Assembly (NCBI GenBank): GCA_963664485.1
Contig: OY761459.1
Coordinates: 2,225,949-2,289,948 of the forward strand
Reading direction: 5' to 3'
Length of the DNA stretch: 64,000 nt
Origin: Syntrophales bacterium
GTDB lineage: Bacteria > Desulfobacterota > Syntrophia > Syntrophales > UBA2210
The number at the start of each line of letters is the position of its first letter. Position 1 is the stretch's first letter. Under the pieces are notes generated by a model. It was not told the origin of the DNA. It saw only the letters and a list, made by a program, of their open reading frames with translations, and did no database searches. The translations under genes and the position numbers were made by a program. Positions 11,315 through 40,211 of this stretch are shown here, one piece after another.

Positions 11315-11351
11315 CCTAAGGGCCTAAGTAAGTCAGAAAGGAGAAAAAACT

Positions 11352-18221: not shown

Positions 18222-18254
18222 TTCCTTATTTGCCTTCGACCGGCATTAAGCGGG

Positions 18255-19580: not shown

Positions 19581-19898
19581 GTTATGAAATCCTGCCTGTC
19601 GAAGTTTAAAAATTGTCCGTCGATTTGAGTTACCTGTTTGATTTCTGTTTCCGTTATCGACCCCGGATATTCAGTTTATTTTCATAAGGCTTATAAGTCA
19701 ATTGAAGTTTCCCATAATACGACTCGGAGAAAGCCCCGGCTATTTGCAGGGCACCGGGATTTATTTTATTTTTCTCCTGCAGAAAATGATATCCTTCGCT
19801 TTTTATATCCGTTTCGCCGATTGCCCTTCGGGTATGTTCGTGTTATAAATTATCCGATACGAGGTCGCTGCCGCCGACCGTAATTTTTTGAGAATATC

Positions 19899-20978: not shown

Positions 20979-21068
20979 GGAGCGGATTAAATGCGGATTG
21001 CCCGGACCGTTTCGGATCATGAGAAGGTCCGGTTGTTACTCTAAATTCTTGGAGATTGAGGAGGGAAA

Positions 21069-22790: not shown

Positions 22791-22800
22791 ATTTTATCAG

Positions 22801-22925
22801 GGTTCCAAGGGCCGAGGGGTCAAGGATTAAAGGGCCTGATTTCTAAAAAATTTTTCAGTGCCTTTAACATTCTTCTTTCTGCTCGCTCGATCCCTCGAAT
22901 CCTTGACCCCTTGGACCCTTAAACC
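22801..22925. repeat. Imperfect ~35-bp inverted repeats flanking a ~53-bp spacer (MITE-like or structured-RNA element) in the proS-rel spacer
   Basis: Left arm GGTTCCAAGGGCCGAGGGGTCAAGGATTAAAGGGC. Right arm GATCCCTCGAATCCTTGACCCCTTGGACCCTTAAACC. The perfect 13-nt core is GGGGTCAAGGATT / AATCCTTGACCCC. Confidence 0.35.
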
Positions 22926-22973
22926 TTAAACGACGTGCCGGAGTTCTCGCAATCTCCGGGTAAATGATAAAGC

Positions 22974-25193
22974 ATGATAAGAATAACCGACATATTGGAA
23001 GAGGCCCAGAAATACCTCTCACAAAAAGATCTTGAGATGGTGGAAAAGGCCTATATTTTTTCCGCGTCCGTACATCAGGGGCAGCTTCGCCTGTCGGGAG
23101 AGCCTTATCTCATCCATCCCCTTGAAGTAACAGGGATGCTGGCAGAAATGAAACTCGACAGGGCCACGCTGATAACGGGTTTGTTACATGACACCGTCGA
23201 GGACACCCTTGCGACGCTTCAACAGATCGAAGAGGCTTTCGGTAAAGATGTTGCCTTCCTCGTGGATGGTCTGACCAAGATAAGCAGGATAACCTTTGGC
23301 GATCAGTTGGAACGCCAGGCTGAAAACTTCAGGAAAATGATGCTGGCTATGTCTGCCGATATCAGGATACTGCTGATCAAGCTGGTCGACAGACTTCACA
23401 ATATGCGCACTCTCGATTTTCAGCCGGCCAACAAACAGAAATTCATAGCGCAGGAAACACTGGAGGTTTATGCTCCGCTGGCCGGACGCCTGGGAATAAA
23501 CCGGATAAAGAGTGAACTGGAAGATCTGTCTTTGAAGTACCTCTATCCGGAGGGATATTATGAGTTGACGGAACGCGTGGATAAAAAGAAGAATGAACGC
23601 GATAAATACACGGAAGAGGTTCGAGATATAATCCGCCGGCAGATTGAAAAGGTCGGCTTGAAGGGGGATGTCAGAGGAAGAGCTAAGCATTTCTACAGCA
23701 TTTTCAAGAAGATGCATGAACAGCGTATAAATTTTGATGAGGTTTACGATCTCACGGCATTCAGGATAATTCTCGATTCCAACGAAGAAAGAAAGTGTTA
23801 TGAGGTGCTGAGTATAATTCATGCGCTCTGGAAGCCCGTACCCGGACGATTCAAGGACTATATAGCGATGCCCAAGACTAACAACTATCGCTCCCTGCAT
23901 ACCACCGTTATCGGCCCGTATGGCGAACGGGTGGAGATACAGATAAGAACGCGCGAGATGGATGAATGGGCGGAAAAGGGCATAGCGGCCCACTGGCGTT
24001 ATAAAGAGGGAAAAGCATCTTCCGGTGCTGAAGATCAGGATCAGATCAACAAGCTCCGGGAATTGCTCGATATTCAAAGCGAGCACAAAAATGCCCGGGA
24101 ATTCATGAAGAACCTGAAACTGGCGCTTTATCCGGATGAAGTTTACGTTTTTACACCGAGCGGTGATGTGAAATCCTTTCCGAAGAGTGCCACTCCCATC
24201 GATTTCGCTTACAGTATCCATACCGACGTAGGCAATCAATGCGTCGGAGCAAAAGTAAACAGAAGCATCGTTCCCCTTAAGTACCAGCTCAAAAACGGCG
24301 ACACCGTAGAGATCATGACGCAGGCGGGACATTTCCCCAGTAAAGACTGGTTGAAGTATGCGGTGACGTCGAAAGCGATATCCAAGATACGGCAGTGGAT
24401 AAAGACGGAGGAACGGGAAGAAAGTATTATATTAGGGAGAAGTATTTTTGAAAAAGAACTAAAGAAGCACAATCTGAAACTCAATAAACTGATCAAGACG
24501 AACGAATTCAATGCAATACTGGAAGGGCAGTCTCTGGGTACCCTTAACGATCTGTTAGCCCTTATCGGTTACGGAAAGATATCGTCGAAACATGTTGTAA
24601 ATCAGTTCTTGCAGGATAGAGGTGAGGAAAAAGAACAGGAAGAAGATGAAATCCCGGAAAAAACCGAAGTAAAATTCAAGAAAACTCCATCCGATGCTGG
24701 TATATCGGTAACAGGAATCGACAATGTCATGGTAAGATTCGCAAAGTGCTGCAATCCGCTGCCCGGGGATGACATAGTAGGTTGCGTAACGCGGGGACGG
24801 GGCATAACCATCCATGGGGTGGACTGTCCGATGGTAAAAGAGATGGACCCCGAACGAATAATCGACGCGCAGTGGAATGTAAGCGAAAAACAGATATTCC
24901 CGGTCAATATCAGGGTAAACTGCAAGGATAAGAAGGGGCTTTTATCTGAGTTGAGTAGTGTCATATATTCGATGGGAATAAATATGAGTTATGCTAATAT
25001 CAACACGAATCCGAATGTTTATGCGGTGTGCAACTTTCAGCTTGATATAAGGGATCTTAAGCAGCTCAACACGGTTATTGCCGAACTTAAGAAATTAAAA
25101 AGCGTTTTATCGGTCGAGAGAGTGCGAGGGTCTTTACGCGATGCCGGAAAGCGCAGGCCCCGTAAAAAAGATGATATTGACATGTGGCGTTAA
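22974..25193 (+). CDS. rel: Bifunctional (p)ppGpp synthetase/hydrolase (RelA/SpoT homologue)
   Basis: 739 aa with HD hydrolase motifs (HPLEV, HDTVEDT), synthetase domain, and TGS and ACT regions. Confidence 0.95.
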   Translation: MIRITDILEEAQKYLSQKDLEMVEKAYIFSASVHQGQLRLSGEPYLIHPLEVTGMLAEMKLDRATLITGLLHDTVEDTLATLQQIEEAFGKDVAFLVDGLTKISRITFGDQLERQAENFRKMMLAMSADIRILLIKLVDRLHNMRTLDFQPANKQKFIAQETLEVYAPLAGRLGINRIKSELEDLSLKYLYPEGYYELTERVDKKKNERDKYTEEVRDIIRRQIEKVGLKGDVRGRAKHFYSIFKKMHEQRINFDEVYDLTAFRIILDSNEERKCYEVLSIIHALWKPVPGRFKDYIAMPKTNNYRSLHTTVIGPYGERVEIQIRTREMDEWAEKGIAAHWRYKEGKASSGAEDQDQINKLRELLDIQSEHKNAREFMKNLKLALYPDEVYVFTPSGDVKSFPKSATPIDFAYSIHTDVGNQCVGAKVNRSIVPLKYQLKNGDTVEIMTQAGHFPSKDWLKYAVTSKAISKIRQWIKTEEREESIILGRSIFEKELKKHNLKLNKLIKTNEFNAILEGQSLGTLNDLLALIGYGKISSKHVVNQFLQDRGEEKEQEEDEIPEKTEVKFKKTPSDAGISVTGIDNVMVRFAKCCNPLPGDDIVGCVTRGRGITIHGVDCPMVKEMDPERIIDAQWNVSEKQIFPVNIRVNCKDKKGLLSELSSVIYSMGINMSYANINTNPNVYAVCNFQLDIRDLKQLNTVIAELKKLKSVLSVERVRGSLRDAGKRRPRKKDDIDMWR

Positions 25194-25240
25194 ACTGCTG
25201 TACTAAGTCCGCACAGCGAATGTTGAGACAAGAGGACGCA

Positions 25241-25936
25241 ATGATTATAAAATCAAAAAAACTGATACCGATTATAACCTTATTCATGATAATGATCCTG
25301 CCCGCGGTTGCTATCGCCGGGAAGCACGTGGTAGTCATCGATCCCGCTCATGGAGGGAGTGACAGGGGTGTGAAACTGTCCATGAGCCTTTACGAGAAAG
25401 ACGTGACCCTTACCATAGCTAAACTCGTAAAGGAAAATCTGTCCGGGGTACAGGATATAACACTTAAACTTACGAGGTCGGATGATACGAACGTTTCCCC
25501 GGCAACCCGGAAGAAGATCGCCGTAGAGGCGGGTGCGGATCTTTTTGTAAGTATTCATGTCAATGCCGGTTTCGGACTGGACGCAAAGGGATACGAGATT
25601 TACTATCCCGTTGCCGATATGCCGTCCGCCGAGAAGATCAACTCCGGTGAAATACTCAAAGATATGAATCAGACAGAACGCCTGAACAGTTCGGTAATCT
25701 TCGCACAGATAATCCGGAAAAACATGGAGAAGATATTTCCACGGGAGGGAAGGGGGCTGAGAAATGCTCCGATTTTCGTGCTGCAGTCCATGACAATGCC
25801 CGGTGTTCTTCTGGAAACGGGATTCGCGACAAATCTCGAAAACAAAAAGAAGCTGAAGGATAAAAAGGTTGATAAGGCTATCGCCGACGCGATCAGTGAG
25901 AGTATAAAAAAATATTTTTCAACCGGCGGAAAATAA
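25241..25936 (+). CDS. N-acetylmuramoyl-L-alanine amidase (Amidase_3), exported
   Basis: Signal peptide [26 protein letters not shown], then VVIDPAHGG and LFVSIHVNA motifs. The start is chosen at the Met preceding the signal peptide. Confidence 0.8.
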
Positions 25937-26658
25937 TGAAAAGGGCAAACGGCCGCCAGTGGAATGAGATGCGGCAGATAAAAATAACCAGGGATTTCCT
26001 GCCGAGCGCCAAGGGATCGGTTCTGATAGAGATGGAGAACACTCGCGTTATATGCACGGCTGCCCTGGAAAACAGAGTCCCTCCTTTCTTAAAAAACTCC
26101 GGTAAAGGATGGCTGACCGCTGAATATGCCATGCTTCCGATGGCTACGCCCTTGAGGAATACTCGAGAATCGTCCGGAGGAAAGATCAAGGGAAGAACGC
26201 ACGAGATCCAGAGGTTAATCGGAAGATCGCTGCGCGCTGTAACAGACCTGAACACCTTAGGCGAAAGGACCATCTTTATCGACTGTGATGTGATACAGGC
26301 AGACGGCGGTACGCGAACAGCGTCGATAACCGGCGGGTTCATAGCGTTGGTGGATGCTTTAAGGCAACTGAAAAAAGAGGGCGAAATAGAAGCCTTTCCC
26401 GTAAATGATTTTATATCCGCCATCAGCGTCGGGATTGTCGATGGCGAGGTCCTTCTCGATCTCGACTACGCGGAAGATTCGAGCGCCGATGTCGATATGA
26501 ATTTCGTAATAACCGGCAGCGGGGGAATCGTCGAAGTCCAGGGTACCGCGGAAGCAACGCCTTTCAGCCGTGATATGCTAGACAAAATGACCGATACCGC
26601 GGCAGAGGGGATCGCCGATCTTATAAAGAAGCAGAAAGAGGTCCTTGGAGAGATATGA
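25936..26658 (+). CDS. rph: Ribonuclease PH
   Basis: 240 aa with typical RNase PH sequence ([34 protein letters not shown]). Its start overlaps the amidase stop. Confidence 0.95.
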
Positions 26659-27290
26659 CTGTATCGAAAGCCTCGCCGGCAAATGGACCTGAGAAGTATA
26701 AGATAGTTTTTGCCTCGAAAAACAAGGGTAAAATAAGAGAACTTAAAGCATTGCTTAATGGAATGAACGTCGATCTTTCCTCGCTGCACGATTATCCCGA
26801 TGCCCCGTATATCGTCGAAGATGGGGCAACTTTCCTGGAAAACGCGTTAAAAAAGGCCCGAACTATCTCCGAATATGCCGGAGCGATGGTTATAGCAGAC
26901 GACTCGGGGCTGGAAGTGGATTATCTGGGCGGGGCTCCCGGCATTCATTCGGCACGGTACGCTGGAGGAGACGCTACAGACTATAAAAATGTCTTCAAAC
27001 TACTGGAGCAATTGGAAAATGTTCCCACAGAGAAAAGAGGCGCGTCTTTCAGGTGCGCGCTGGTTTTGTACAAAACAGACGGAACATTCGAAACCTTTGA
27101 AGGCAGGCTGAAGGGGATAATATCCGAAGAACCGGTGGGCAGTGAAGGTTTCGGATACGATCCGGTATTTATCGTGCCGGAATTCGGCAAGACAATTGCC
27201 CAGCTTGATCCTGATACAAAAAACAGGATCAGCCACAGGGCGATGGCCTTTGCCAAACTCAAAAAAAGCTTGCAGAAACAAATCGAATAA
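26655..27290 (+). CDS. rdgB: dITP/XTP pyrophosphatase (RdgB/HAM1 family)
   Basis: [19 protein letters not shown] and GFGYDPVF motifs; 4-nt overlap with rph. Confidence 0.9.
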
Positions 27291-27343
27291 TCTAAAAGGC
27301 ATCGGCACTTAGATAAGATGCCATTCAGAATTATCCACCTATT

Positions 27344-27420
27344 CGGGGCGTAGCGCAGCTTGGTAGCGCGCCTGCTTTGGGAGCAGGATGTCGCAGGTTC
27401 AAATCCTGCCGCCCCGACCA
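27344..27420 (+). tRNA. tRNA-Pro (anticodon TGG), CCA encoded
   Basis: The cloverleaf was folded by hand: acceptor CGGGGCG/CGCCCCG, D stem GCGC/GCGC, anticodon stem CCTGC/GCAGG with loop TTTGGGA, and T arm GCAGG-TTCAAAT-CCTGC. Length 77 nt. Confidence 0.95.
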
Positions 27421-27477
27421 GTAATTTTCTGTAATTTTGAGATTTAAAACGTGATTACAGCCGTCGTATTATGCGTT

Positions 27478-29216
27478 TTACTCGAAAGCGAATCCTTCTT
27501 CCCGAAAAAGCGCGATACAGATTTGTGCCACGGAGTCGTCATAGATCCCGTCCGGCACCGGTTTGAATTTCCTTTAGTGCCGCTTCGATTCCCAGGGAAG
27601 GACGATACGGACGGTGCGATGCCATCGCCTCGACGACGTCTGCAACGGCGACAATCTTTGCCTCCATCATGATATCTTTTTCCCTGAGACCCTGTGGGTA
27701 GCCGCTCCCGTCGAGCCGTTCATGGTGTTGATGAACGATATCGGCAATACGGCCAGGGAAAGTCGATTTCCTTTAGCAATTGATAGCCCATTCGAGGGTG
27801 ATCCTTAATTAACTCGAATTCCGTTGCGCTCAGTTTCGACGGTTTGCTTAGAATTTCCGCCGGTATATTGATCTTACCGGCATCGTGAATCGAAGCGGCA
27901 AAGCGGATTCCCATGATGATGTCTTCCGGTAGATTCATTTTTCCAGCGATCGCGCTGGCAAGAGACATGACCCGGATCTGATGTCCTGCCGTATACGGAT
28001 CCCTGAGTTCAACGGCCCTCGCGAGAACCTGGATGGTGCCTTCAAAGGTGGAGAGTATTTGTTTATAGTTTTGGACCAGTTCCCTCTCCGCGTCCTTTTG
28101 CTTTGTTATATCGCGGTAGATGATAAAGTATCCCTCAGTTCTACCGTCGATGATTACCGGTCCTCCCGATATCGAAACATTAACCGCGCCGCCGTCTTTG
28201 CGGTATCGGACCCTCTCGTAATCGCGAACTCCTCCTGCCAGGGATTCCTGGTCGATAGCCCGAGCTTCTTTTATCTGGTCCATTCCCGCGGGAATAACTA
28301 TATCATTAATGTTTTTCCCTCTTATCTCTCCAATCTTATATCCGAACAGATCCAGGAATCCCTGGTTAGCGTCCATTACCCTGCCCTGGAGATTGAGTGT
28401 AACTATTCCTTCGAGGGAATAGTCGAAGATGGATCGAACTCTGGCTCGCTGACGTCTCGCCTCCTGTTCCGCCTTTTTCCGTGGGGTTATGTCACGCAGA
28501 GAGGCGATGAAGCAATCTTTTTTTTCGTATACCGTGCTCGCGACACGCATTTCCACCGAGGTTATTTTCCCCGTTGTACCGACTATGTCTATCTCGGAAT
28601 ATTCCCTTTCGATGACGGGAAATCCGAATTCACGGCCCACCATCTCCCCTGCCGGTCTGCCGAACATTGTTTCAGCGGAACTGTTGATAAAAAGGATAAT
28701 GCCGGAGGAATCGATGATCACGATCCCATCGGCATTTCCCTCGATAACGGTGCGAAACATATTTTCGCTCCGGGCGAGTTCCACCTGTGCCGACTTTCTC
28801 ATCAGGGCGAGTTCTACGGCGGAGTGTATGTCCGTTTTTTGAAAAGGTTTCGTAATAAAGCCGAAAGGGACGGTGGCCATGGCGCGGCTTCGAGTATCGG
28901 CATCGATATCAGCAGTTACATATACAACAGGAATGGCGTAATGCTCTTGGATGTACTTTGCGGCATCTATACCATCCATCTTTCCATAGAGTTTGATGTC
29001 CATCAGGATCAGGTCGGGGGGCTCCCGGCGAACCATTTCAAGGGCGTCTTCTCCTGAACCTGCAATCGATATTCTGCCGTATCCTTCTGACTGAAGTATG
29101 TCCTTGAGATCATGTGCCACGACCGACTCGTCTTCGACGATCAATATATGTAAACGCTCTTTATCCTCTACCATTTTATCCTCCTCGATTCGGGCCGTTC
29201 GCGTCCCCGGGAGCAT
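27478..29216 (-). pseudogene. Response regulator REC-PAS-PAS-HD-GYP (c-di-GMP phosphodiesterase type) disrupted by two +1 frameshifts in the HD-GYP domain
   Basis: The track ORF (27720..29216) ends at ...DFPWPYCRYRSSTP*. The next frame reads IADIVHQHHERLDGSGYPQGLREKDIMMEAKIVAVADVVEAMASHRPYRPS...GAGR. A third frame reads IYDDSVAQICIALFREEGFAFE*, with its stop at 27478. The likely start is ATG 29174, after GAGGAGG. Confidence 0.75.
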
Positions 29217-29403: not shown

Positions 29404-29667
29404 TCAGGCCAAATTCAGTATCGATATAATATGCTGTTCATTGCTGATGTCGCCAATCATTTTTCGCTCGGGTGGCGGGGTGGACTTTATCAGTGTGGGT
29501 GTTGCAAAAATATTGTCTCGAAGGCATTGGTCAGGGTTTTCGATTATATCGATAATTTCAAGGAGATATCCCTTGCCGAACCGTTGCGAAAGAATATTAT
29601 GCAGCAGAGTAATAGTGTTTTCCGTTTTCTTGGAACGATTGGAGATGTAAAATTTGAGTTCATTCAT
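29404..29667 (-). CDS. kaiB: KaiB-family protein (thioredoxin-like fold)
   Basis: 87 aa. LKFYISNRSKKTENTITLLHNILSQRFGKGYLLEIIDIIENPDQCLRDNIFATPTLIKSTPPPERKMIGDISNEQHIISILNL is collinear with cyanobacterial KaiB (LKLYVAG.TP.S..A...L..IL......Y.L.VIDVL.NPQLAE.D.I.ATPTL.K.LP.PVRRIIGDLSD.E.VL.GLDL). Confidence 0.85.
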   Translation of the reverse strand: MNELKFYISNRSKKTENTITLLHNILSQRFGKGYLLEIIDIIENPDQCLRDNIFATPTLIKSTPPPERKMIGDISNEQHIISILNLA

Positions 29668-29679
29668 GGCATATTCTCT

Positions 29680-30063
29680 CTAAAATAGTGTTGGTTTTTC
29701 GAGAATACTTCGGGATAACAGCAGGATTTCCTCCGTTCCAACCGGCTTCCTCAACACCTCGAAGTGGACACCATCAGCCACAAGTTGTTTGAGATCGGAA
29801 AAAAATTCTCCGTAAAAAGCCGTTACTATGTATACAGGAACATCCTTGTCCACTTTACGAATTTCTTTCAACACCTCGATACCGTTCATTCCGGGCATCT
29901 TGAGATCAAGGAAAACGAGATGGAAGGAATTGTCTTTGAACAGGCGTATCCCTTCCTCGCCCGATGCCGCAGTTGTCACGGCATATCCTGAATCTTCCAG
30001 GGCAAGCTCAAAAGCAAGCCTGACTGACGAATCGTCGTCGATTACCAGTATATGGCTCTGCAT
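29680..30063 (-). CDS. Single-domain response regulator (CheY-like receiver)
   Basis: 127 aa with the acidic pocket DDD, phospho-acceptor in FLDLKMPGMNG, and conserved T (IVTA) and K (RKP). Confidence 0.9.
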   Translation of the reverse strand: MQSHILVIDDDSSVRLAFELALEDSGYAVTTAASGEEGIRLFKDNSFHLVFLDLKMPGMNGIEVLKEIRKVDKDVPVYIVTAFYGEFFSDLKQLVADGVHFEVLRKPVGTEEILLLSRSILEKPTLF

Positions 30064-30104
30064 CCCTCTTTATCTCCTTAGTTTTTTTATATGCGTATGT
30101 GCCC

Positions 30105-32018
30105 TCATCGTTTAACACCTTTTTGTTGTACCGGCAAGGATATCTCGGCTGTTGTTCCGGCAGCTTGCGTACTTGTGCAGGTTATGGTTCCTCCGTGCCT
30201 TTCGATTATGTTCCTGCTTATAGACAGGCCGAGTCCCGTTCCTTCTCCCACCGGTTTGGTCGTGAAAAATGGATCGAAGATACGACCGATATGTTCTTCC
30301 GCGATGCCGCAGCCGCTGTCGGTGACTCGTATGTGAACGTACCCGTTTTCAATGAAGAACAAAATGTTCAGCAAGTGCTCTTTCGGCGCAAGCTTGAGAG
30401 CGTCCAGCGCGTTTGACATAATGTTCAGGAGCACCTGTTGTATCTCTTCAACCCTCATGGGAATTTCGGGGATGACACCGTCGACCGTTTTCGTCAACAC
30501 GACATTTTCTTTGTCGATGCGATAGCGGAGCAGGCTTTCGACCCGGTCGAAAACATCGGTTATGCATTCCCGGCGCATAGCCGTTTCATGATCCGTCCCT
30601 TCATATCGTGAGAAGGTAAGAAGGTTTTTCACGATGCCGATGGAGCGATTGGTTTCCATTTCGGCGTTCTCCAGCACGAGGGCCTTTTTGTCATCGCCAG
30701 GGGTATGTTTCCGGCAGTACTGGATAAAGTTAAGGATGCCCATCAAGGGGTTATTCAGTTCATGGGCGATTCCTGCCACCAGGGTGCCGAGGGCCGTCAT
30801 CTTTTCCGACTGGATGAGATATGCCTGGGCCTCCTGGAGCTCCCGGGTTTTTTTCTGAACCCTGAGCTCCATCTCGTCGTAGGCCGACTTCAAAGCTGCT
30901 TCCATGCGCTTTCTGTCGGTAATGTCCCGGATCACACCCACGGAGCCTATGTGAATGGCCAGCATCTTGACGGGATTCACTTCATACATACCCGAACTGT
31001 TCACTTCCATCGTGACCAGGTCCCCTTCGATATTTTCGACGACGCCCGGTGAAATGTCCCGATCCTTGCTCTTCGGCACAAGCCGGATTTCCAGGCCTGT
31101 CGTTTTCCGACCCCCCGTCCGTCGCTCGTCCATGAGCTTCGGCGCGCCTTCGTCCCCCGTCTCCAGTCCTTCATATTTCGGCAGGACGATCTCCCGGCTC
31201 GCCGTCTCGACGTCGGCTGGAAGAACTATTGTGCTGAAATGTTTACCTATCAGCTCTCCGGGAGTGTAACCGATGTGACGGATGGCATCGTTGATGAAAG
31301 TAAAATGGCCCGAAGCGTCGATCCGGTAGACAATATCGGGAATGGTGGTAACCAGGTTTTTGAATCGCGCTTCCGAGGCCTTCAACTCGACCAGGCGGTA
31401 TTCGAGTTGTTCGTTTAACCGCGCCAGCTTTTCTTTTGTCTCGACCAGTTCTCTGTTCAGGAGATTGAGTTCCTGATTCTTGTGGATTGCGTTTTCGAAG
31501 GTGGAGAGCAACAGGTTAGTGATCTGTACCCTGTTTGCCGTGATGTTATGTTTTTCTCCGGCGAAAAAAACCTCGAAGGCCGACTCGGAAGGAGATATCT
31601 TCCGGAGTTTTTTGTTCTCCAGTATGGTTTCTATATGTTCGATGAGATACTTTTCGCTGTAAGGTTTGGTGATAAACCCGTCGGCACTGCTGGCGAGTCC
31701 TTTCACAATGTCGGCACGGTCGGTCAGTGCCGTCAGAAGTACCACGGGAATATGCTGGTGCTCGGGATGCGATTTCACTATATTGCACAACTCATACCCG
31801 TCCATGGTCGGCATGATGATGTCACTGATGATAAGGTCCGGAGGCGATATCTCGATCCGCTTGAGAGCCTCCCGGCCGTGGGAGGCTTCCGCAACATGAT
31901 AGCCGTGGCTTTCGAGGAGCTGTAAAAGTATGGCCCGCTGGGTGGGACTGTCTTCCACGATGAGGACAGTCACCGGGTTCTTGCGGTCCGATATCTTAAT
32001 GCCTTTCCTGGGGCTCAT
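30105..32018 (-). CDS. Hybrid sensor histidine kinase (N-terminal REC, coiled coil, PAS, HisKA, HATPase_c)
   Basis: REC (LIVEDSPTQR...DIIMPTMDG), H-box GIAHELNNPL, and N/G boxes (NIMSNALDA, DSGCGI, GTGLGLSIS). Confidence 0.9.
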   Translation of the reverse strand: MSPRKGIKISDRKNPVTVLIVEDSPTQRAILLQLLESHGYHVAEASHGREALKRIEISPPDLIISDIIMPTMDGYELCNIVKSHPEHQHIPVVLLTALTDRADIVKGLASSADGFITKPYSEKYLIEHIETILENKKLRKISPSESAFEVFFAGEKHNITANRVQITNLLLSTFENAIHKNQELNLLNRELVETKEKLARLNEQLEYRLVELKASEARFKNLVTTIPDIVYRIDASGHFTFINDAIRHIGYTPGELIGKHFSTIVLPADVETASREIVLPKYEGLETGDEGAPKLMDERRTGGRKTTGLEIRLVPKSKDRDISPGVVENIEGDLVTMEVNSSGMYEVNPVKMLAIHIGSVGVIRDITDRKRMEAALKSAYDEMELRVQKKTRELQEAQAYLIQSEKMTALGTLVAGIAHELNNPLMGILNFIQYCRKHTPGDDKKALVLENAEMETNRSIGIVKNLLTFSRYEGTDHETAMRRECITDVFDRVESLLRYRIDKENVVLTKTVDGVIPEIPMRVEEIQQVLLNIMSNALDALKLAPKEHLLNILFFIENGYVHIRVTDSGCGIAEEHIGRIFDPFFTTKPVGEGTGLGLSISRNIIERHGGTITCTSTQAAGTTAEISLPVQQKGVKR

Positions 32019-32037: not shown

Positions 32038-33126
32038 TTAGCCTGTCTTCAGTTGATTGATAACAAGCGCGATTCCCTCGGGGTCGAGGAGGTATTCTGC
32101 CGCGCCTATTCGCTCGGCTTCGCCGGGCATGCCGTATACCACAGCGCTTTCACGGCTCTGCGCCACCGTGAGAGCGCCTTTATTTCTCATCATTTTCAAT
32201 TCCGCCGCCCCGTCGACCCCCATCCCGGTAAGGATGATTCCCGCGGCTCTTGATCCGTAGACTTTTGCAACGCTTCCAAAAAGGTGCGATACGGAAGGGC
32301 AGATATGTAATGTCCCGGTGCCGCGATACAGGCGTATTCTGCCGGTGCCGGTAACTCCCATATCAAAGTGATCGGGGGCGAAGTATACTCCTCCGGGCCG
32401 TAATTGCTCGCCGTCGGCCGCGATATAAACCGCCTTCTTCGTTGTTGCAGCGAGCCAGTCCACAAGCCCTTGGAGAAATCCCTCGGCGATATGCTGTACG
32501 ATCACAATGGGCGGGTTCTTTCCGTCCGAATCGATCCCCTCCAGAATTTGACGGACGGCAGCGGGACCGCCTGTCGAAGCTCCTATGGCTACGATCTCGA
32601 TCTTGTGCATCTCTTTTTCTGTAACGCCCGGGGATACCGAATCGACAGGGGCTTTTCGATACCTGGTATGGCGCTTGACAACCTTGATCTCCGACATGAG
32701 CTTGACCATTTTGATTAGCTCTCGGACATCTTTTTCATGGTGCGGGTGACCGATACCCTTCGGTTTCTGCAGCACCGTCAGCGCTCCCGCCTCGAGTGCC
32801 CGGAACACCGTTTCCTGCGAGTAGGGGTTCCAACTCGCCGTAACGATGACGATGGGAAGAGGGTCTTTCGCCATAATTCTTCGCGTTGTCTCGAAACCGT
32901 CCATGTCGGGCATGTTGATGTCCATGGTGACAAGATCGGGCTTCGAATGTGCGAGAAACTCCAGGGCCTCTGCGCCGTGTTTTGCCGCGCCTATTACCTC
33001 TATCTCAGGATCGGAATCGAGGATGTGTCGGAGAAATTCCCGCGCTACGATGGAATCCTCGACTATCAGCACCCGAATTAATCTCTTCTCTTTCTTATTA
33101 ACTCTGTTATTAATTGCTTTTTTCAT
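32038..33126 (-). CDS. cheB: Chemotaxis protein-glutamate methylesterase (REC + CheB catalytic domain)
   Basis: RVLIVEDS...DINMPDMDG receiver, then GASTGGP and the catalytic region. 4-nt overlap with the cheA stop. Confidence 0.9.
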   Translation of the reverse strand: MKKAINNRVNKKEKRLIRVLIVEDSIVAREFLRHILDSDPEIEVIGAAKHGAEALEFLAHSKPDLVTMDINMPDMDGFETTRRIMAKDPLPIVIVTASWNPYSQETVFRALEAGALTVLQKPKGIGHPHHEKDVRELIKMVKLMSEIKVVKRHTRYRKAPVDSVSPGVTEKEMHKIEIVAIGASTGGPAAVRQILEGIDSDGKNPPIVIVQHIAEGFLQGLVDWLAATTKKAVYIAADGEQLRPGGVYFAPDHFDMGVTGTGRIRLYRGTGTLHICPSVSHLFGSVAKVYGSRAAGIILTGMGVDGAAELKMMRNKGALTVAQSRESAVVYGMPGEAERIGAAEYLLDPEGIALVINQLKTG

Positions 33127-35441
33127 ATCAGTCTTTCAATCACTTCGATCAGGTTGCTCTGATCGAAACTGCTTTTGACGATATAGGCATCCGCCCCTGC
33201 GTCGATGCCTCGCTTTTTGTCTTCCGGAGATTCCAGGGCCGTGACGAGAACGACGGGTGTTTCGGCGTAACGACGATCAGTCTTGATCTTTGCCGTCAGA
33301 TCAAAGCCGTTCATGCGCGGCATGTCCACGTCGGTTACGACCAGGTCGGCTGGATTTTCCAGCAGCTTCGTGAACCCTTCGATACCGTCGTTTGCGGTCA
33401 TCACCCGGTAGCCGGCGCCTTCAAGAATGTTTTTTAGCAGCATCCTCGCTGTGATGGAATCTTCCACGACAAGAATGGACTTCGGCTCCGCCTGACGGAG
33501 ATCCCCTCGCGCCTCCTGTAGAGGAGAGACGCTCTCCGCCGGTCTGATGCCCTTTACCAGGGCAGAAACACTGATGACGGGAACCACCCTGCTTGACCCG
33601 AGGACTGCGGCGCCGTTGAAGTGACGAACGAACGAGAGCTGAGCGTCGAAGCTTCGGACCAGAACCTCCTCCTCACCCAGTATTTCGTGAACGGCGACGG
33701 CGATTTGCTCACTGCCGGAGGAGACGATAAGTACCGTTGAAGCCGGCTTCTCGTCTTTTTTCGCCGGAAGGGAAAGAAGTTCCGCCAGCGCAATCAACTG
33801 CAGCGAAACCCCGTCATGGCGAATGGTGCGAGTTCCTTTTACGAAAAAAATGTCATCATTCTCCAACTTTTGTGCCCGTACCACCGCCGCGGTGGGAATA
33901 ATAAATTCGTGATCGTAGACACGGATCCGCACTCCTCGAAAGGTAGCCCGGGTCAGAGGAATGACCACCCTGAAAGTCGTTCCGACTCCCAGCTGTGTTT
34001 CGGCGATATCTATGAATCCACCGAGTTGTTCGATTTTTTCGCGCGCGATGGCCAGACCCAGTCCCCGTCCGGACAGATCGGTGATGAAATCGCTCGTCGA
34101 AACCCCGGAAAAGAAGATCAACTCCAGAGCGTCTTCCCTGCTCAGGGTTTTCCTGCTTTTTACCTCAACATGTCCCGCCTTCCGGGCGGCCAGTCGTATC
34201 TTGTCTTCGTCCAGACCTTGCCCGTCGTCTGAAAAGAGAATTTCCGCCCTGTTTTCCTCGATCCGGTTTACGACAATCGAGATGGTCCCCACGGGAGATT
34301 TTCCCCTGGAGATACGGATCTCCGGGGTCTCGATCCCGTGGTCGATACTGTTTCGTATGAGGTGGAGAAAGGGGTCTCGCATCTCGTCGAGAATGCGGCG
34401 GTCTATCTCGATATCGGCCCCCGAGAAACGAAGCTCTGCGCGTCGTTTTTTCTCCCGGGACAGATCGCGAACAATCTTTGGAAATGTTGTAAGGAGTGAT
34501 GAGAAGGGGAACATCAGGATATTCTTGACATCGTCCAGAAGTGCGTCGATGATTATCCCCGCACCGTGGCTGTCATGGAACGCTCTCGTCCCTATGCCTG
34601 AGAGATTTTTTTCGACGGATATAATGGTTGTGTAGAGTTGATCGAAATAACCGACTGTCTCGCTGTCGTGGCCGGGCATGCCGGACGAAGAGGCCCTTTC
34701 CCGCTGTTTCAACAAGTGAAGGGCTTTCAGCCAGCGAATTCGCATGGTGCCGATCAGGTCGAGGACCGCACGGAGCTCTTGATCCCGTTCCAGAAGCGAA
34801 CGCTTCAGCCCGATTAATTCTTCCGTCTGTGAGAGAACGGCGTCAAGCCGGGATACGGAAACGCGTATCGAGTCCGAAGTAACGGATGTGATTTGCGGTG
34901 AGGGAAACGCCGAGTTTTCTTCTCCGGCAGCGCCTTCCGCCATGATGTGTTCCGGGAGCGTTTCCCGGGATTCCAACTTCGCCGCGAAGGAAGGTGAGGG
35001 TGGCGTTTCCTCTTGTGCTGTTTTTTCTTTAGGGAATTCGTTTTGCGTCTTCGCAATCATGGCGATTTGTTTGATCACCTCCGAAATGGGAGGGGGACTT
35101 GTTTGCTCCGAGGCCGATAATTGGCCCGCGATGGCGCTCACGGCGAGGTGAAGTTTGTCGTAAAAGTCCTGTGTCGGTGTGATATCTTTTTTCTTCATTG
35201 ATGCAAAGATCGTTTCCATTGCCTGGCAGAGTTGTTCCACTTCGGAGAAGTGCACCGCCCTGGACGCTCCTTTCAGGCTGTGGGTCGCCCGGTAGACGGT
35301 TTCGATAATCGTCTCCGTTCTCGCCGTATCGACGCCCTGTTCCATTTCGAGAAGCCCGTCCGTTATTGCCTTGAGGTGGTCACTCGCCTCTGCACGATAG
35401 ATCTCGATCAGCTTCTTCATGAAGGTCTCATCACCTGCCAC
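33123..35441 (-). CDS. cheA: CheA-type histidine kinase fused to a C-terminal receiver (WspE-like CheA/Y hybrid)
   Basis: Hpt (ATHSLKGASRAV), HATPase (HLIRNSIDHGIE, DDGQGLD, GRGLGL), CheW-like domain, and C-terminal REC (ILVVEDSITAR...DVDMPRMNG). Confidence 0.9.
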   Translation of the reverse strand: MAGDETFMKKLIEIYRAEASDHLKAITDGLLEMEQGVDTARTETIIETVYRATHSLKGASRAVHFSEVEQLCQAMETIFASMKKKDITPTQDFYDKLHLAVSAIAGQLSASEQTSPPPISEVIKQIAMIAKTQNEFPKEKTAQEETPPSPSFAAKLESRETLPEHIMAEGAAGEENSAFPSPQITSVTSDSIRVSVSRLDAVLSQTEELIGLKRSLLERDQELRAVLDLIGTMRIRWLKALHLLKQRERASSSGMPGHDSETVGYFDQLYTTIISVEKNLSGIGTRAFHDSHGAGIIIDALLDDVKNILMFPFSSLLTTFPKIVRDLSREKKRRAELRFSGADIEIDRRILDEMRDPFLHLIRNSIDHGIETPEIRISRGKSPVGTISIVVNRIEENRAEILFSDDGQGLDEDKIRLAARKAGHVEVKSRKTLSREDALELIFFSGVSTSDFITDLSGRGLGLAIAREKIEQLGGFIDIAETQLGVGTTFRVVIPLTRATFRGVRIRVYDHEFIIPTAAVVRAQKLENDDIFFVKGTRTIRHDGVSLQLIALAELLSLPAKKDEKPASTVLIVSSGSEQIAVAVHEILGEEEVLVRSFDAQLSFVRHFNGAAVLGSSRVVPVISVSALVKGIRPAESVSPLQEARGDLRQAEPKSILVVEDSITARMLLKNILEGAGYRVMTANDGIEGFTKLLENPADLVVTDVDMPRMNGFDLTAKIKTDRRYAETPVVLVTALESPEDKKRGIDAGADAYIVKSSFDQSNLIEVIERLI

Positions 35442-35489: not shown

Positions 35490-37553
35490 CTATACCCTGT
35501 ACTGCTTCACCATTTCCTTGAGCCTCATCCCCAGCTCGTGCAGGTCTTGAATGGCCCGCTCCATCTGTTTCGTACTGGAGGCTACCTGGACGCTGGCCTC
35601 CTTGATATTCTCCATAGCGGCGGCTACCTGTTCCATTCCCACCTGCTGCTGTTGACTCGATGCCGTGATCTGAACCGAGGCGTTTGCTGCTTCATCGACA
35701 TTCTCGGCAAGTGTATTGATCACTCCCTCAGATTTTTGCAGTAGCGCCAGGCCAGCTTCCACAGACTTGTTACCCTGCTCGGTGGACATGACTGCGGTGC
35801 TTATGGACCGCTGAATATCGTTCAGGATATTCCTGATCTGTACCGTTGCCTGTTTTGACTGGTCGGAGAGACTCTTCATCTCCTGGGCGACGACGGAAAA
35901 GCCCCGTCCCTGTTCTCCGGCCTTCGTCGCTTCGATGGAGGCATTAACGGCCAGAAGGTTCGTCTGTTCCGTAAGACCCGTTACCGTCGCGGTAATTTCT
36001 CCGATGGACCGGCTCTGTTCACTGAGTTGTATCACCGTATCGGCTATGCCCCCCATCTGCTCCCGGACGCGATTCATTCCTGCCAGGGCTTCACGGATCG
36101 CCTCGATCCCGTCCTGGGATGTTTCGGTTGCCTGGCGTCCCAGTTCCGATACTTGTGCCGCCTTTTTCGACGAGAGCTGAGCCGTCTGTTTCACTTCCTC
36201 TACGGTCGCCGTCGTCTGGCTGACCGCGGTGGAAGTCTCGGCGGTGCTGGACGAAACCTGTGCTACGGATGCCATGATCTCGCTTGTCGAGGACGAGAGG
36301 ACGTTTGTCGCTTCCTGTATTTCAGATATCTGCCGTCTCATTCTATCAAACATCACTGAAAAAGCTTTCCCGAGGATGTCCCGTTCGGATCTCGGTGCCA
36401 ATTTCTCCGTGAGATCCCCTGTCGCCCCTTTGTCGGCCGCTGCAGCTATAGTCTTCATTGCTTCGGTCGTTTCCCTCATTGCCGAGAGCATCTCTCCCAG
36501 TTCGTCTTTGCCCCCCTCGGCAATGGGAATGTCCGTGTCGCCGATGGCGAGAGCATTTGCGGCATCGACGACCGTGGTGATCGATCGCGAGATGTTTAAG
36601 GCGAACAAGTAGAAGAAAAGGGATGCCAGAATCAGCGCCGCAATGCCGATGGAGATGATCAGGGCGGCAAGACCTCTGCCCGGTGCAAGAAGCTCTTCCA
36701 TGGGGAAAATAGCTATAACCTTCCATCCCGTCGTGGGGACCGTCGAGAAAGCGCAGAATTTTCGCAAGTTTTGGGAGGTATATTCGAGGGAATGGGCGGT
36801 TATGCTGCCGGGTGAAGTGATGATTTTTTCGAGGTTTTTGTCAATATCGGAGAGTGACATGGTAAGGATGCGCGATTCCTCGGGATGGACGATATAGGTA
36901 CCTTTTTCATCGGTAAGATAAACATACCCCGTCTCCCCCACGTGAATGGTGCTCACAAGCTTTTTCAGGTAGTCGAGCCAGATGGCCATTACGACGGCGC
37001 CCGAAATCTCTTTACCGTCTGACGTATAGACGGGATATGCGACTGTACAGATGAGTTTCCCTGTCGCTGCGGAGTGAACGACGGCGCCGACGAAGGGGGT
37101 CCCACCCAAGGCCGATTTCAGGTAGGCCCTCGATGATAGATCGACACCTGCGTATTTCCCGTCGTCGCTGGAAGCAAAAATATGACCGGTCTGTCTGCTT
37201 ACCAGTGAGACACTGGAAAATCTGTCGCCTGCCGACGCCTTGATATTGTTGAGTTCGGCCTGTACGGTTATGATTTCTTTTTGTCCCTCTGCCACGCCTG
37301 AACGGAACACCTTTTCCGCGGCAGCGATGGTACTTTGAGAAAATGAGATATTTCGTGCCGTAATGAGCTGTTCCTGCATATACATATCGATCATGCGTGT
37401 GGTGCTTTCATCTATTGCTGCTACGGATCGCTCGCGGTTTTCAAAGAGCTTTTCCGTCGACTGGCGGACCGACACGATGCCGATCACCAGGATGGGAAGC
37501 ACGACGGCCGTCAATCCTCCCAATAAAAGCTTTCTTTTCAGTGTCAATTTCAT
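35490..37553 (-). CDS. Methyl-accepting chemotaxis protein with periplasmic Cache-like sensor, HAMP and MA domains
   Basis: Two TM segments bracket a ~270-aa periplasmic domain. The conserved signalling hairpin is EATKAGEQGRGFSVVAQEMKSLSDQS. Confidence 0.9.
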   Translation of the reverse strand: MKLTLKRKLLLGGLTAVVLPILVIGIVSVRQSTEKLFENRERSVAAIDESTTRMIDMYMQEQLITARNISFSQSTIAAAEKVFRSGVAEGQKEIITVQAELNNIKASAGDRFSSVSLVSRQTGHIFASSDDGKYAGVDLSSRAYLKSALGGTPFVGAVVHSAATGKLICTVAYPVYTSDGKEISGAVVMAIWLDYLKKLVSTIHVGETGYVYLTDEKGTYIVHPEESRILTMSLSDIDKNLEKIITSPGSITAHSLEYTSQNLRKFCAFSTVPTTGWKVIAIFPMEELLAPGRGLAALIISIGIAALILASLFFYLFALNISRSITTVVDAANALAIGDTDIPIAEGGKDELGEMLSAMRETTEAMKTIAAAADKGATGDLTEKLAPRSERDILGKAFSVMFDRMRRQISEIQEATNVLSSSTSEIMASVAQVSSSTAETSTAVSQTTATVEEVKQTAQLSSKKAAQVSELGRQATETSQDGIEAIREALAGMNRVREQMGGIADTVIQLSEQSRSIGEITATVTGLTEQTNLLAVNASIEATKAGEQGRGFSVVAQEMKSLSDQSKQATVQIRNILNDIQRSISTAVMSTEQGNKSVEAGLALLQKSEGVINTLAENVDEAANASVQITASSQQQQVGMEQVAAAMENIKEASVQVASSTKQMERAIQDLHELGMRLKEMVKQYRV

Positions 37554-37608: not shown

Positions 37609-38181
37609 CTATAGGGAACCAACGATTCCCCCTTTGATAATATCCGAACCGAGAATCTTCTCCGTGTCGAGGATGATGATCTTTTCATTTGTGACGCCGG
37701 AAAGAAACTCGATCTTCTTTTCCTTCATGGTGGACGGAACCGGATGAACATGAGTGTTCCGGATAGATATGATACCCTCTATTTCATCCGTGAGAACGCC
37801 CATCTCCATCCCCCCATGAGAGAGTATAACGATCTTGTTGAATTCGGTGATACCCCGTTCAGGGAGGTGAAAGAGCCTCTTGAGGTCGATTACCGACAGG
37901 ATCCGGCCTCTTACATGAGTAATCCCCGCGATGAACGGGGGGACACCGGGGAGAAATGTCAGCGAAGTGAGTGGAAGGACTTCCCGCACGTAGGTCATAT
38001 GAAAGGCGTACCGTTCAAAGGCGAGCGAAAATACCAGGAAATCCCGCAAGCCGGCCGGGTCTTCAAGCGGGAGACGCTCCTTCGCGTAGAAAATGGCCCG
38101 TTCATGAAGGATCTTCTTCTTGGCCAGGTTGTCGGAGTTGCCCGGTATGGTACTTGTTCCTGCGGCCGTTTGTCTCTTCAC
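37609..38181 (-). CDS. cheW: CheW-like coupling protein
   Basis: 190 aa with the CheW-domain pattern (FLVFSLAFERYAF...GITHVRGRILSVIDL). Confidence 0.85.
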   Translation of the reverse strand: MKRQTAAGTSTIPGNSDNLAKKKILHERAIFYAKERLPLEDPAGLRDFLVFSLAFERYAFHMTYVREVLPLTSLTFLPGVPPFIAGITHVRGRILSVIDLKRLFHLPERGITEFNKIVILSHGGMEMGVLTDEIEGIISIRNTHVHPVPSTMKEKKIEFLSGVTNEKIIILDTEKILGSDIIKGGIVGSL

Positions 38182-38191: not shown

Positions 38192-39694
38192 TCACCTCTT
38201 ATTTGTCATGTTTTCTCCCTGCAGTGTTTCTACTATTTCTCTCAGCCGTCCCGCTGTCATGCCTTCCGACTCCGGCAGGATTTCACCTGCGTCGCAGCGA
38301 TTGAGAAGGGCAAGCGTATGCGCATAGTGACGGGATGCCGCTACTGCGCCACCTTCATCCCGGGCGATATTTCCGAGCGAAAAATGGGCGAGAACGTGAC
38401 GCGGATCGAGATAAAGCACCTTTTTTAAAGCGGCTGTCGCTTCTTTCTTCCGGTTCATCTCCTCGAGAATCATGGCCCTGAGAAAATAAGGCGAGGGTTT
38501 GAGCGTATCCTCGGAGAGGGCCTCGTCGCACAGCGCCAGTGCCTCGTCGAGAGCTCCCCGGCCAGCCTTTATACGGGCACTGGAAATCAGTTCGTCCGCC
38601 TTGTTGTACCCTTCCGGCGGCGATGTTTCATACGCTGATGGAGTCGCGACGGTACGATGGCCATGACTCGTCGTAACCGTCGCCCCCCGCGCGGGAGAGG
38701 ACTTCTGGGACGATCTGAAAGGTTTGAGACATACAGGCGCAACGTTTCGTTTCTTTCTTGACACCCGCACCGGAATTTCTCCGCTTTGAGCGAAGTGTTC
38801 CAGTCGATCTTCGTGAGAGGAGTGAGAATCCTTTTGATATAAAGTGACGTCATTGTAGTGGAGAGATCGGAATGATGAAAAAAGGAAAGAAGAGATTTCC
38901 ACCGGGCTTACGATAAGATACCCTCCTTCGGAGAGGCAGCGATAAAAACGTTCCACCGTCGAGGCAAAGTAGTCCGGGGAAAAATACATGAGCACGTTTC
39001 GGCACAGTATGAGATCCATTCCGGAGGTGTTGTTGATGAGTGAGGGATAAATATCCTCCGAAAGGTTAAGATATGTGAAGGTAACCATATCGCGTATGTG
39101 CGCCTTAATTTCAAAGCGGTCCTGTTTTATATTCGTGAAGCAGGAATCCTTGACCCACTTGGGGGTATTTCGAAAAGACCACTTTGAGTAAATGCCCATG
39201 CGGGCCCTTTCGAGGATCTCTCGATTGATATCGGTGGCGAGGATCGTAATATGCCACTGTTCCTTTTCGGAAAGGATTCGGTCGAGGAGAATCGCCAGTG
39301 AATACGGCTCCTCTCCCGTGGCACAGCCGGCGCTCCAGATCCTGAGGTATCTCCCCTGGTCTTTCTTGGATGCAATAAGCTCCGGTAACAGCTTCATTTC
39401 AAGCATTTCGAAAAGAGAAGCGTCTCTGAAAAAAAAGGTTTCGCTGGTAGTCAGATACCCGACAAGGCTGTCGAGCGTTGTGTGATCGATCGAAGAAGAG
39501 AGTAGAGAATGGGTGAATGCAACGGGATCGTCGTGTCCCATCCCCCTGGCGGCCATATCGAGTCGCTGGGCGAGATCTCGATAGTTTTTTTTCTCGAAAT
39601 CAAGCCCTGTTGCCCGGCGGATAAAATCGCCGGCCTGTGAAAGCAGATCTTCCGGAATGGCACGATGGTTTGTCTGTTCGGATCGTTTATCCAT
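38192..39694 (-). CDS. cheR: Chemotaxis methyltransferase CheR with C-terminal TPR extension (WspC/FrzF-like)
   Basis: CheR SAM-binding region (RIWSAGCATGEEPYSLAILL) plus about 120 aa of TPR-like C-terminus. It overlaps the upstream cheW by 8 nt. Confidence 0.9.
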   Translation of the reverse strand: MDKRSEQTNHRAIPEDLLSQAGDFIRRATGLDFEKKNYRDLAQRLDMAARGMGHDDPVAFTHSLLSSSIDHTTLDSLVGYLTTSETFFFRDASLFEMLEMKLLPELIASKKDQGRYLRIWSAGCATGEEPYSLAILLDRILSEKEQWHITILATDINREILERARMGIYSKWSFRNTPKWVKDSCFTNIKQDRFEIKAHIRDMVTFTYLNLSEDIYPSLINNTSGMDLILCRNVLMYFSPDYFASTVERFYRCLSEGGYLIVSPVEISSFLFSSFRSLHYNDVTLYQKDSHSSHEDRLEHFAQSGEIPVRVSRKKRNVAPVCLKPFRSSQKSSPARGATVTTSHGHRTVATPSAYETSPPEGYNKADELISSARIKAGRGALDEALALCDEALSEDTLKPSPYFLRAMILEEMNRKKEATAALKKVLYLDPRHVLAHFSLGNIARDEGGAVAASRHYAHTLALLNRCDAGEILPESEGMTAGRLREIVETLQGENMTNKR

Positions 39695-40211
39695 CCTGCT
39701 CTACCTTTCTCTTCTTTCCCGGCTTAGCAGATTGTTTTGTCTTTGTAAGCTGAAAAAGCGCCTCATCAAGATGGATTTCTTCCTCTGATGAAAGAAAGGA
39801 GTCGAGATCGTGGATATAGACGAGCCCGTCATCGAGTATTACCACTCCGGATATGGGCCCGTTTATTCCAGGTATGGTGTCCTGAGGAACGATTCGAGCT
39901 TCCGGGTAGTCGAAAACACCGGCGACATCGTCGACGACGAGCAGGATAGTCCTGTTACGCGTTTTTGCAACGATGAAACTGTCGCCAGGATCCAGGTCAC
40001 GTTCCGAGAAACCGAAGCGACGGCGTGTGTTGAAAACGGGAAGTAGAGTTCTTTCCAGATTTATGAGACCCGCGACGGCGAAGGGCGCGTTGGGGAGAGG
40101 GGTGATTTCCATTGCAGGAAGAACCCGTACTACCGCAGGTAGGTGAAGGGCGAATCGTTGTGTGTCAAGGGTAAATATGACAAGCTGCATTATAACACTC
40201 TCTTTCCTCAC
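39687..40211 (-). CDS. cheW: CheW-like coupling protein (first gene of the che operon)
   Basis: CheW pattern LVIFTLDTQRFALHL...VAGLINLERTLLPVF. The track start is GTG 40211; ATG 40190 (MQLVIF) is a plausible alternative. Confidence 0.8.
   Translation of the reverse strand: MRKESVIMQLVIFTLDTQRFALHLPAVVRVLPAMEITPLPNAPFAVAGLINLERTLLPVFNTRRRFGFSERDLDPGDSFIVAKTRNRTILLVVDDVAGVFDYPEARIVPQDTIPGINGPISGVVILDDGLVYIHDLDSFLSSEEEIHLDEALFQLTKTKQSAKPGKKRKVEQDG

Follow-up and report, generated by a model that had tools for sequence, protein, structure and literature searches.

Can a KaiB protein work apart from a KaiC-based timer, and if so, with which partner? KaiB is the textbook metamorphic protein, understood only as a partner of KaiC. 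The question is raised by a 64,000-nucleotide stretch of contig OY761459.1 from a Syntrophales bacterium (assembly GCA_963664485.1), referred to here as the window, whose minus strand encodes a KaiB-like open reading frame (ORF) of 87 amino acids (aa) at 29404..29667, directly behind a stand-alone receiver gene (29680..30063). The answer that we favor has two linked parts, to which we jointly give about an even chance: that the ORF is a diverged member of a hitherto undescribed KaiB subfamily, which travels as the cognate partner of one subfamily of single-domain response regulators, and that KaiB acts there as a thioredoxin-fold adaptor for receiver (or PAS) domains of a phosphorelay, tuning the turnover of cyclic di-GMP (c-di-GMP).

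The 87-aa ORF matched the Pfam KaiB family PF07689 with an E value of 2.2e-21 and a score of 75.8 bits against a cut-off of 27, the match covering residues 6-84 of 87 and profile positions 2-80 of 82. In phmmer comparisons with the PDB, residues 4-86 aligned with cyanobacterial, Rhodobacter and Legionella KaiBs and with KaiB-TV4 (E 5e-17 to 2e-10), cyanobacterial KaiB giving the best alignments (E ~5e-17) and identity to the solved KaiBs being ~40%. The KaiB core, consisting of the ATPTL.K..PPP.R..IGD.S block and the terminal L.L, was retained and visible in these alignments. The initial annotation of this locus had claimed a whole-length likeness to KaiB, with the same block and terminus among the shared features, and had proposed a profile search as a check; the likeness is upheld by the PF07689 score and the PDB alignments, and the ORF passes the Pfam threshold. 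It nevertheless departs from the clock proteins, being a short form without the acidic C-terminal tail and falling below the NCBIfam cut-offs for circadian KaiB equivalogs (58.9 vs 145.3 bits for TIGR02654 and 60.7 vs 110 bits for NF006798); the SasA-type family NF006800 gave 19.8 bits only. Among 1.84 billion cluster representatives, the nearest to the window KaiB was an 87-aa protein, P0134, at 55% identity, with all others at or below 47%, and the best match in GTDB, sampled at one genome per species (185,579 genomes), reached 45%. The window KaiB was the most diverged KaiB in our sample, and in a neighbor-joining tree it formed a long branch approximately equidistant to all others; the receiver-paired KaiBs described below did not group together in that tree. 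Tandem proteins with two KaiB domains (P0132 and P0133, 179 and 247 aa) were also among its best matches. Judged by sequence, the ORF genuinely belongs to the KaiB family but is atypical of clock KaiBs.

The KaiB ATG lies 12 nucleotides (nt) past the TAG of the 127-aa receiver ORF, a spacing that the initial annotation had read correctly and from which it had concluded that the two genes are translationally coupled; coupling is deduced from this spacing, and the Shine-Dalgarno sequence is weak. The receiver scored 84.9 bits against Response_reg and contained the phosphorylation set D10/D11, D53, T81 and K106, which was conserved in nearly all of its orthologues (30+), and this residue set identifies it as a CheY-like phosphorylatable single-domain response regulator. 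It belongs to a KaiB-associated subfamily marked by the signature TAF[Y/H]xE[F/Y]F, or in its longer form PVYIVTAF[Y/H]xE[F/Y]F, of which the window version is PVYIVTAFYGEFF. A derivation from KaiA3-type receivers was considered and rejected, as the ~260-320-aa receivers upstream of kaiBC scored no better than generic ones.

Metagenomes were searched with this receiver, not with KaiB, and yielded a receiver-centered sample of 41 loci whose receivers are 47-63% identical to that of the window. Of the 36 evaluable occurrences, 23 had a same-strand KaiB no more than 500 bp from the receiver, and in another four the cluster contained a KaiB at a distance of 1.7-8.4 kb. In all, the pair of receiver (REC) and KaiB was seen in more than 30 loci, with 7-33 nt separating the REC stop from the KaiB start in a dozen of them, and the receiver orthologues that adjoin KaiB elsewhere were 50-70% identical to the window receiver. 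Three further short KaiBs, picked by similarity only, were each preceded, at 10-12 nt, by a subfamily member of 128-129 aa.

The setting of the pair varied around this constant core. Locus L092 repeated the window order (MCP, CheA, CheB, REC, REC-PAS histidine kinase (HK), REC, an 88-aa KaiB and a protein beginning REC-PAS), and L122, the home of P0134, contained PAS-HK, REC, KaiB and REC-PAS-PAS-HD-GYP genes with identities to their window counterparts of 71%, 70%, 56% and 56-71%, respectively. In other cassettes the pair was joined to different sensors: a periplasmic-binding-protein/HAMP kinase upstream in L128-L130 and a GAF-GAF kinase downstream in L127. L131 carried the pair on a short contig, and the receivers of L127-L131 were 50-60% identical to that of the window. 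Three REC-KaiB pairs occurred in tandem within 2.8 kb in L104 (1-2797), and beyond them lay a PAS protein and, at the contig end, a fourth, canonical-looking KaiB. Enzymes of c-di-GMP metabolism repeatedly adjoined the pair, with HD-GYP proteins in the window, L122, L082, L087, L093, L096 and L097 and a GGDEF-EAL protein in L017. The last of these loci combined an 85-aa KaiB, a 126-aa pseudo-receiver and a REC-PAS-GGDEF-EAL protein, and KaiC was not found in its 20 kb. The L017 receiver (10280-10660) has Asn in place of the phospho-acceptor Asp and has lost the conserved Lys, which echoes the pseudo-receivers of CikA and KaiA. It was already known in general that kai genes are associated with kinases, receivers and GGDEF/EAL proteins (PMC3164672); what is new is that receiver-KaiB pairing recurs, across many uncultured bacteria, in a four-gene kinase/receiver/KaiB/phosphodiesterase module and in cassettes with other sensors. 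The literature searched yielded no account of a receiver and KaiB as a dedicated pair, of such a pair in Che-like clusters or of its depletion in KaiC.

Evidence that the two genes are inherited together came from their rates and patterns of change. For 19 pairs, the distance matrix of REC correlated with that of KaiB (Mantel r 0.60, p 2e-4), with KaiB evolving faster than REC (mean identity of 46% vs 60%). Comparison with a relative that is 93% identical in nucleotides, a copy of the HK-REC-KaiB-HD-GYP region from a hydrocarbon metagenome, gave a ratio of nonsynonymous to synonymous substitution rates (dN/dS) of 0.16 for KaiB and of 0.16 for the receiver; the window KaiB is thus under purifying selection. 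Taken together, the recurrence of the pair, the correlated distances and the dN/dS values indicate a conserved, selected and co-inherited unit, so that the link between KaiB and receiver or kinase genes to which the initial annotation drew attention is conserved and not accidental.

The same pair was poor in KaiC. Within the window KaiC was found neither by phmmer with cyanobacterial KaiC nor with a profile hidden Markov model built from 78 KaiCs, both run on six-frame ORFs of at least 60 aa, and tblastn at E <= 10, for KaiC intact or degraded, returned only noise across the 64 kb; the earlier statement that KaiC and KaiA are absent from this stretch therefore stands, in the case of KaiC by all three methods. 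In a KaiB-centered sample of 80 loci from GTDB genomes, of which 78 were evaluable, 73 included KaiC, as in the classical picture, L017 being one of the exceptions. Among receiver-paired loci whose flanks were usable, only 3 of 16 contained KaiC (Fisher p 1e-9 vs 73/78), and of the 13 without KaiC in their available flanks several extended 10 kb to each side. The paired KaiBs are thus strongly depleted in adjacent KaiC.

The window KaiB has also changed at positions that KaiC-associated KaiBs hold constant. Relative to 63 KaiC-adjacent KaiBs, and considering residues that are invariant or nearly so among them, it carries the replacements G15N, A23T, A53C, E54L, D/E55R, G88I and D90N (Synechococcus elongatus numbering). 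Positions 53-55 belong to the fold-switching half that contacts the B-loop of the KaiC CI domain, and mutation of G88 or D90 locks KaiB in the fold-switched state (PMC6378743, PMC9478674). With I and N at the two switch positions, the window KaiB does not keep the canonical switch residues, as far as a comparison of residues goes. P0134 has the N, C, L and K/R replacements in common with the window KaiB and shows A and K at the G88 and D90 positions, so that the fold-switch glycine is gone there too; the shared replacements are therefore fixed features of the clade and not signs of decay. The diverged residues would fit a changed partner and a stably thioredoxin-like fold. AlphaFold2 (AF2), given an alignment of 102 sequences, predicted the fold-switched, thioredoxin-like form with a predicted local distance difference test score (pLDDT) of 94.7, and with a shallow alignment of 11 sequences it gave a pLDDT of 66 and an undefined C-terminal half. 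The best Foldseek match of the model was the fold-switch-stabilized KaiB bound to KaiC CI (5JWR_B; template-modeling (TM) score 0.85). The top matches were 5JWR_B, 4KUN, 5JYT and 8FWJ_M (TM 0.78-0.89); Legionella KaiB, KaiC-bound Rhodobacter KaiB, KaiB-TV4 and the SasA N-domain were all among the best, and ground-state KaiB was absent from the top matches.

How such a protein might act is suggested by three precedents. Fold-switched KaiB binds the CikA pseudo-receiver by a beta2-beta2 sheet extension (PMC6378743), in S. elongatus the c-di-GMP enzyme KidA uses its PAS domains to bind fold-switched KaiB (PMC9478674), and the short paralogue KaiB-TV4 is a stably fold-switched monomer (PMC10808063); together they make plausible an adaptor role in a phosphorelay with a c-di-GMP enzyme as its endpoint. 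In the scheme that we propose, the kinase, itself under the control of its built-in receiver domain, which CheA would feed, would phosphorylate the 127-aa receiver. KaiB in its thioredoxin-like form would then bind this receiver, or else the REC/PAS part of the phosphodiesterase, and would serve as an adaptor, a sequestering partner or a delay element, its binding setting the phosphoryl flux to the HD-GYP enzyme and hence c-di-GMP levels. We infer KaiB binding, the domain that is bound and the direction of the effect. The stand-alone receiver would be the likeliest partner because it is the most constant neighbor, and the PAS-bearing HD-GYP or GGDEF-EAL enzymes the likely output because they recur beside the pair (in the window, L122, L017, L082, L087, L093, L096 and L097). 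The PAS domains of the downstream c-di-GMP enzyme are a second type of candidate partner, one that the initial annotation had missed.

Several points weigh against this adaptor scheme or against a reading of it that is free of KaiC. ColabFold yields the fold-switched state even for Thermosynechococcus elongatus KaiB, whose favored state is the ground state (PMC10808063), so the fold-switched AF2 model does not discriminate between preferred states: the prediction is the family default and says nothing about which state the window KaiB prefers. The HD-GYP gene is frameshifted in the assembly, which may reflect either an indel error in sequencing or genuine pseudogenization. In a published survey, KaiB was confined to genomes that also have full-length KaiC (PMC5520375), and in Synechocystis the REC-containing kaiA3 forms an operon with kaiB3, with kaiC3 located elsewhere (PMC11372060). 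Finally, in L040 (a Desulfobacteraceae metagenome-assembled genome) and in L091, the PAS-HK, REC and KaiB genes, with CheR/CheB upstream and a REC that is 57% identical to the window receiver, are followed directly by a ~300-aa PAS protein (PAS-X), a second, canonical KaiB and KaiC; from this adjacency, the pair probably communicates with a KaiC system in these lineages.

The last three of these points bear on the alternative that survives best, in which a kaiC, probably together with a second, canonical kaiB, is encoded elsewhere in the genome and the cassette is an input or output arm of a KaiC timer, comparable to a split SasA with its regulator or to a kaiA3-kaiB3 operon with an unlinked kaiC3. 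We take this to be a serious possibility, though one that falls short of being probable. The presence of KaiC in 73 of the 78 KaiB-centered loci and the occurrence of kaiBC in a related order (L030, an uncultured Syntrophales) point in the same direction, as does L094 (4912-5332), where a KaiC remnant, with residues 166-214 joined to 435-503, directly follows REC-KaiB. Here KaiC has apparently decayed while the pair next to it was kept, unless the remnant is an artefact of assembly. Against a KaiC-dependent role stand the failure to find KaiC in the window or in the available flanks of the 13 other paired loci and the changes in the window KaiB at residues invariant in KaiC-adjacent proteins, of which several fall within the fold-switching, KaiC CI-contacting half (PMC6378743). 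Moreover, the adjacent KaiC in L040 and L091 is served by a separate canonical KaiB, so the REC-paired copy is a distinct paralogue there. On the contexts of L040, L091 and L094, the pair probably originated next to kaiBC, as a KaiB paralogue that had its own receiver, and in many lineages it is now without a neighboring KaiC. For the window KaiB, KaiC-independence, judged from the 64 kb and the paired loci, is plausible but unproven.

Two side observations concern these KaiC-containing loci. A run of N in the first kaiB of L040 (4327-4436), flanked by a duplication, is a scaffolding artefact; once it is removed, the gene encodes a 92-aa KaiB with the same sequence as in L091. The ~300-aa protein, with a single N-terminal PAS domain and a C-terminal half without a Pfam match, precedes kaiB-kaiC in several loci of Desulfobacterota type, namely L040 (4620-5519), L030, L056, L059 and L091, and it may have a KaiA-like role.

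A second alternative keeps KaiB apart from the receiver: the partner would be the PAS domains of the c-di-GMP enzyme and/or of the PAS kinase, which KaiB would affect allosterically in the manner of KidA, and the receiver would be only a co-regulated element of the phosphorelay. Downstream of KaiB there are indeed PAS-bearing HD-GYP or GGDEF-EAL genes in three cases (the window, L122 and L017) and PAS proteins in four others (L086, L089, L091 and L114). We nonetheless think this improbable, given that the most constant neighbor is the receiver and not a PAS protein, that the HAMP-HK-REC-KaiB operon of L128-L130 has neither a PAS protein nor a c-di-GMP enzyme, and that REC and KaiB distances co-vary. 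That the ORF is a decaying, now functionless leftover of a former kaiBC locus, as might be supposed from its extreme divergence (at most 45% identity to any KaiB in the 185,579 species genomes), the loss of KaiC beside such a pair in L094 and the frameshift in the neighboring HD-GYP gene, is very improbable because of purifying selection (dN/dS equal to that of the receiver) and conserved synteny, the ORF being intact, its 55%-identical relative having the same 87-aa length and identical gene order, the core KaiB motifs being retained and the confident fold prediction likewise speaking against decay.

A stronger version of the adaptor reading would make these proteins a clade of short, constitutively thioredoxin-fold, KaiC-independent KaiBs, each dedicated, as effector or as sequestering adaptor, to binding a specific single-domain regulator in cells without any Kai clock. 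We offer this only tentatively and consider it less likely than not.

The genes around the pair form a Wsp-like chemosensory set, all on the minus strand and assigned by Pfam. The cluster begins with a CheW gene, the second of two (39687..40211), followed by CheR with a TPR tail (38192..39694), the other CheW (37609..38181), a chemoreceptor of dCache-HAMP-MCPsignal architecture (35490..37553), CheA with a C-terminal receiver (Hpt-HATPase_c-CheW-REC; 33123..35441), CheB (REC and methylesterase; 32038..33126), a 637-aa hybrid sensor kinase (30105..32018), the receiver, KaiB and the HD-GYP gene. Intergenic gaps upstream of KaiB ranged from small overlaps up to 55 nt, and the receiver ORF starts 41 nt past that of the kinase. 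Matches to Response_reg, PAS, HisKA and HATPase_c in the kinase, along with the Response_reg score of the downstream protein, bear out the earlier description of a bona fide receiver behind a hybrid kinase. This REC-PAS-HisKA-HATPase_c protein is presumed to be the kinase of the 127-aa receiver; it shares 71% identity with its counterpart that precedes REC-KaiB in L122, and its catalytic half resembles the L040 kinase. KaiB is not fused to HisKA-HATPase_c, the 87-aa ORF being separate and the N-terminus of the kinase being REC-PAS.

The last gene of the cluster, on which the initial annotation was silent, is a member of the conserved module. It encodes a REC-PAS-PAS-HD-GYP c-di-GMP phosphodiesterase (27539..29174, minus strand; Pfam Response_reg, two PAS and HD_5 matches on the 27720-29216 ORF), presumed to be the enzymatic output of the module. 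The gene lies 229 nt downstream of KaiB, and a terminator-like site was not found in that interval. Its frame is broken at a CCC run near 27750-27760, so that the N-terminal 498 aa and the HHERLDGSGYP motif are read in different frames; the two frames align end to end with the intact 564-aa L122 orthologue at 56-71% identity. Beyond the CheW end of the cluster, a 292-aa ORF (41110-41988, minus strand) with a signal-peptide-like start is highly repetitive and rich in W, Y, Q and H, and it had no Pfam match.

Comparison with characterized systems places the window between several of them. The KaiBs of kaiBC and kaiABC loci (S. elongatus, T. elongatus, Rhodobacter sphaeroides and Legionella Lpp1115) belong to the same Pfam family, are ~40% identical over their whole length and share the N-terminal beta-alpha-beta unit and the ATPTL...P.P.R..IGD.S core, and the predicted window structure matches KaiC-bound KaiB. 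They differ in that the window KaiB has no adjacent kaiC and no acidic tail, scores below the NCBIfam cut-offs, is paired with a receiver and has replaced G15, A53-E54-E55, G88 and D90. In the KaiA3-KaiB3(-KaiC3) system of Synechocystis and some other bacteria (PMC11372060), as in the window, the gene directly before kaiB encodes a protein with a phosphorylatable receiver; kaiA3 and kaiB3 form one transcription unit, and kaiC can be unlinked. KaiA3, however, is larger, at ~300 aa, and has a KaiA-like C-terminal domain; the window receiver has 127 aa and consists of the receiver domain only. The KaiA3-KaiB3 system is demonstrably KaiC-dependent (PMC11372060).

The complex of KaiB with the CikA pseudo-receiver (PDB 5JYV; PMC6378743) is a structural precedent for the binding of a receiver fold by KaiB, although the CikA domain is fused to a kinase, cannot be phosphorylated and binds well only to the KaiB-KaiC complex, whereas the window receiver is free-standing and has all phosphorylation residues. 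KidA, a PAS-GGDEF-EAL protein (PMC9478674), likewise ties KaiB to a PAS-containing c-di-GMP enzyme; it differs in not being adjacent to kaiB, in lacking a receiver domain and in acting on the KaiABC clock, and the window enzyme is of the HD-GYP type. SasA with RpaA resembles the window in bringing together a KaiB fold, a histidine kinase and a response regulator, and the window model matches the SasA N-domain, but in the window these are three separate genes and KaiB is by sequence a true KaiB rather than a SasA-type domain. With the chemosensory systems of the Wsp type or of 'alternative cellular function', the window shares CheW, CheR-TPR, CheW, MCP, CheA-REC and CheB, with a receiver-gated c-di-GMP enzyme in last place. 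The output of Wsp systems is a REC-GGDEF cyclase (WspR type) in place of the REC-PAS-PAS-HD-GYP phosphodiesterase, and the window additionally has the REC-PAS kinase, the stand-alone receiver and KaiB interposed.

Contigs of sister strains (L133-L135, including GCA_002402655.1) at ~97% nucleotide identity were collinear with window positions 14444-27424 and diverged exactly after a tRNA-Pro gene (27344-27424), beyond which they carried phage-like DNA with a small terminase subunit and ended 2 kb further on; the sister strains thus look to have a prophage at tRNA-Pro. An interpretation of the Che-KaiB cluster as a tRNA-linked island was rejected as unsupported, since the sister DNA at that site is phage-like and a repeat of the tRNA end was not found in the window. 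An 11.7-kb segment of the window (2758-14443) was missing from sister contig L133, and its genes encode a GAF-PAS sigma-54 activator, a PFL-like glycyl radical enzyme, a radical-SAM activase and an aldehyde:ferredoxin oxidoreductase; the absence and the gene content together mark it as a strain-variable metabolic cluster.

The receiver-KaiB pair provides a testable system in which to ask what KaiB does outside clocks, and whether the binding of receivers, as in CikA, KaiA and KaiA3, predates clock function. If the adaptor reading is correct, the pair would add a new kind of accessory protein to signaling by single-domain response regulators and to chemosensory control of c-di-GMP. If its stronger, KaiC-independent version is correct, two-component and chemosensory pathways of c-di-GMP control would have gained a KaiB-based gate or delay, the rule that KaiB occurs only with KaiC would be overturned, and receiver binding would appear as an old and autonomous function of KaiB. 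Should a kaiC be encoded elsewhere in the genome, the pair would still represent a new input or output arm of the non-cyanobacterial Kai systems.

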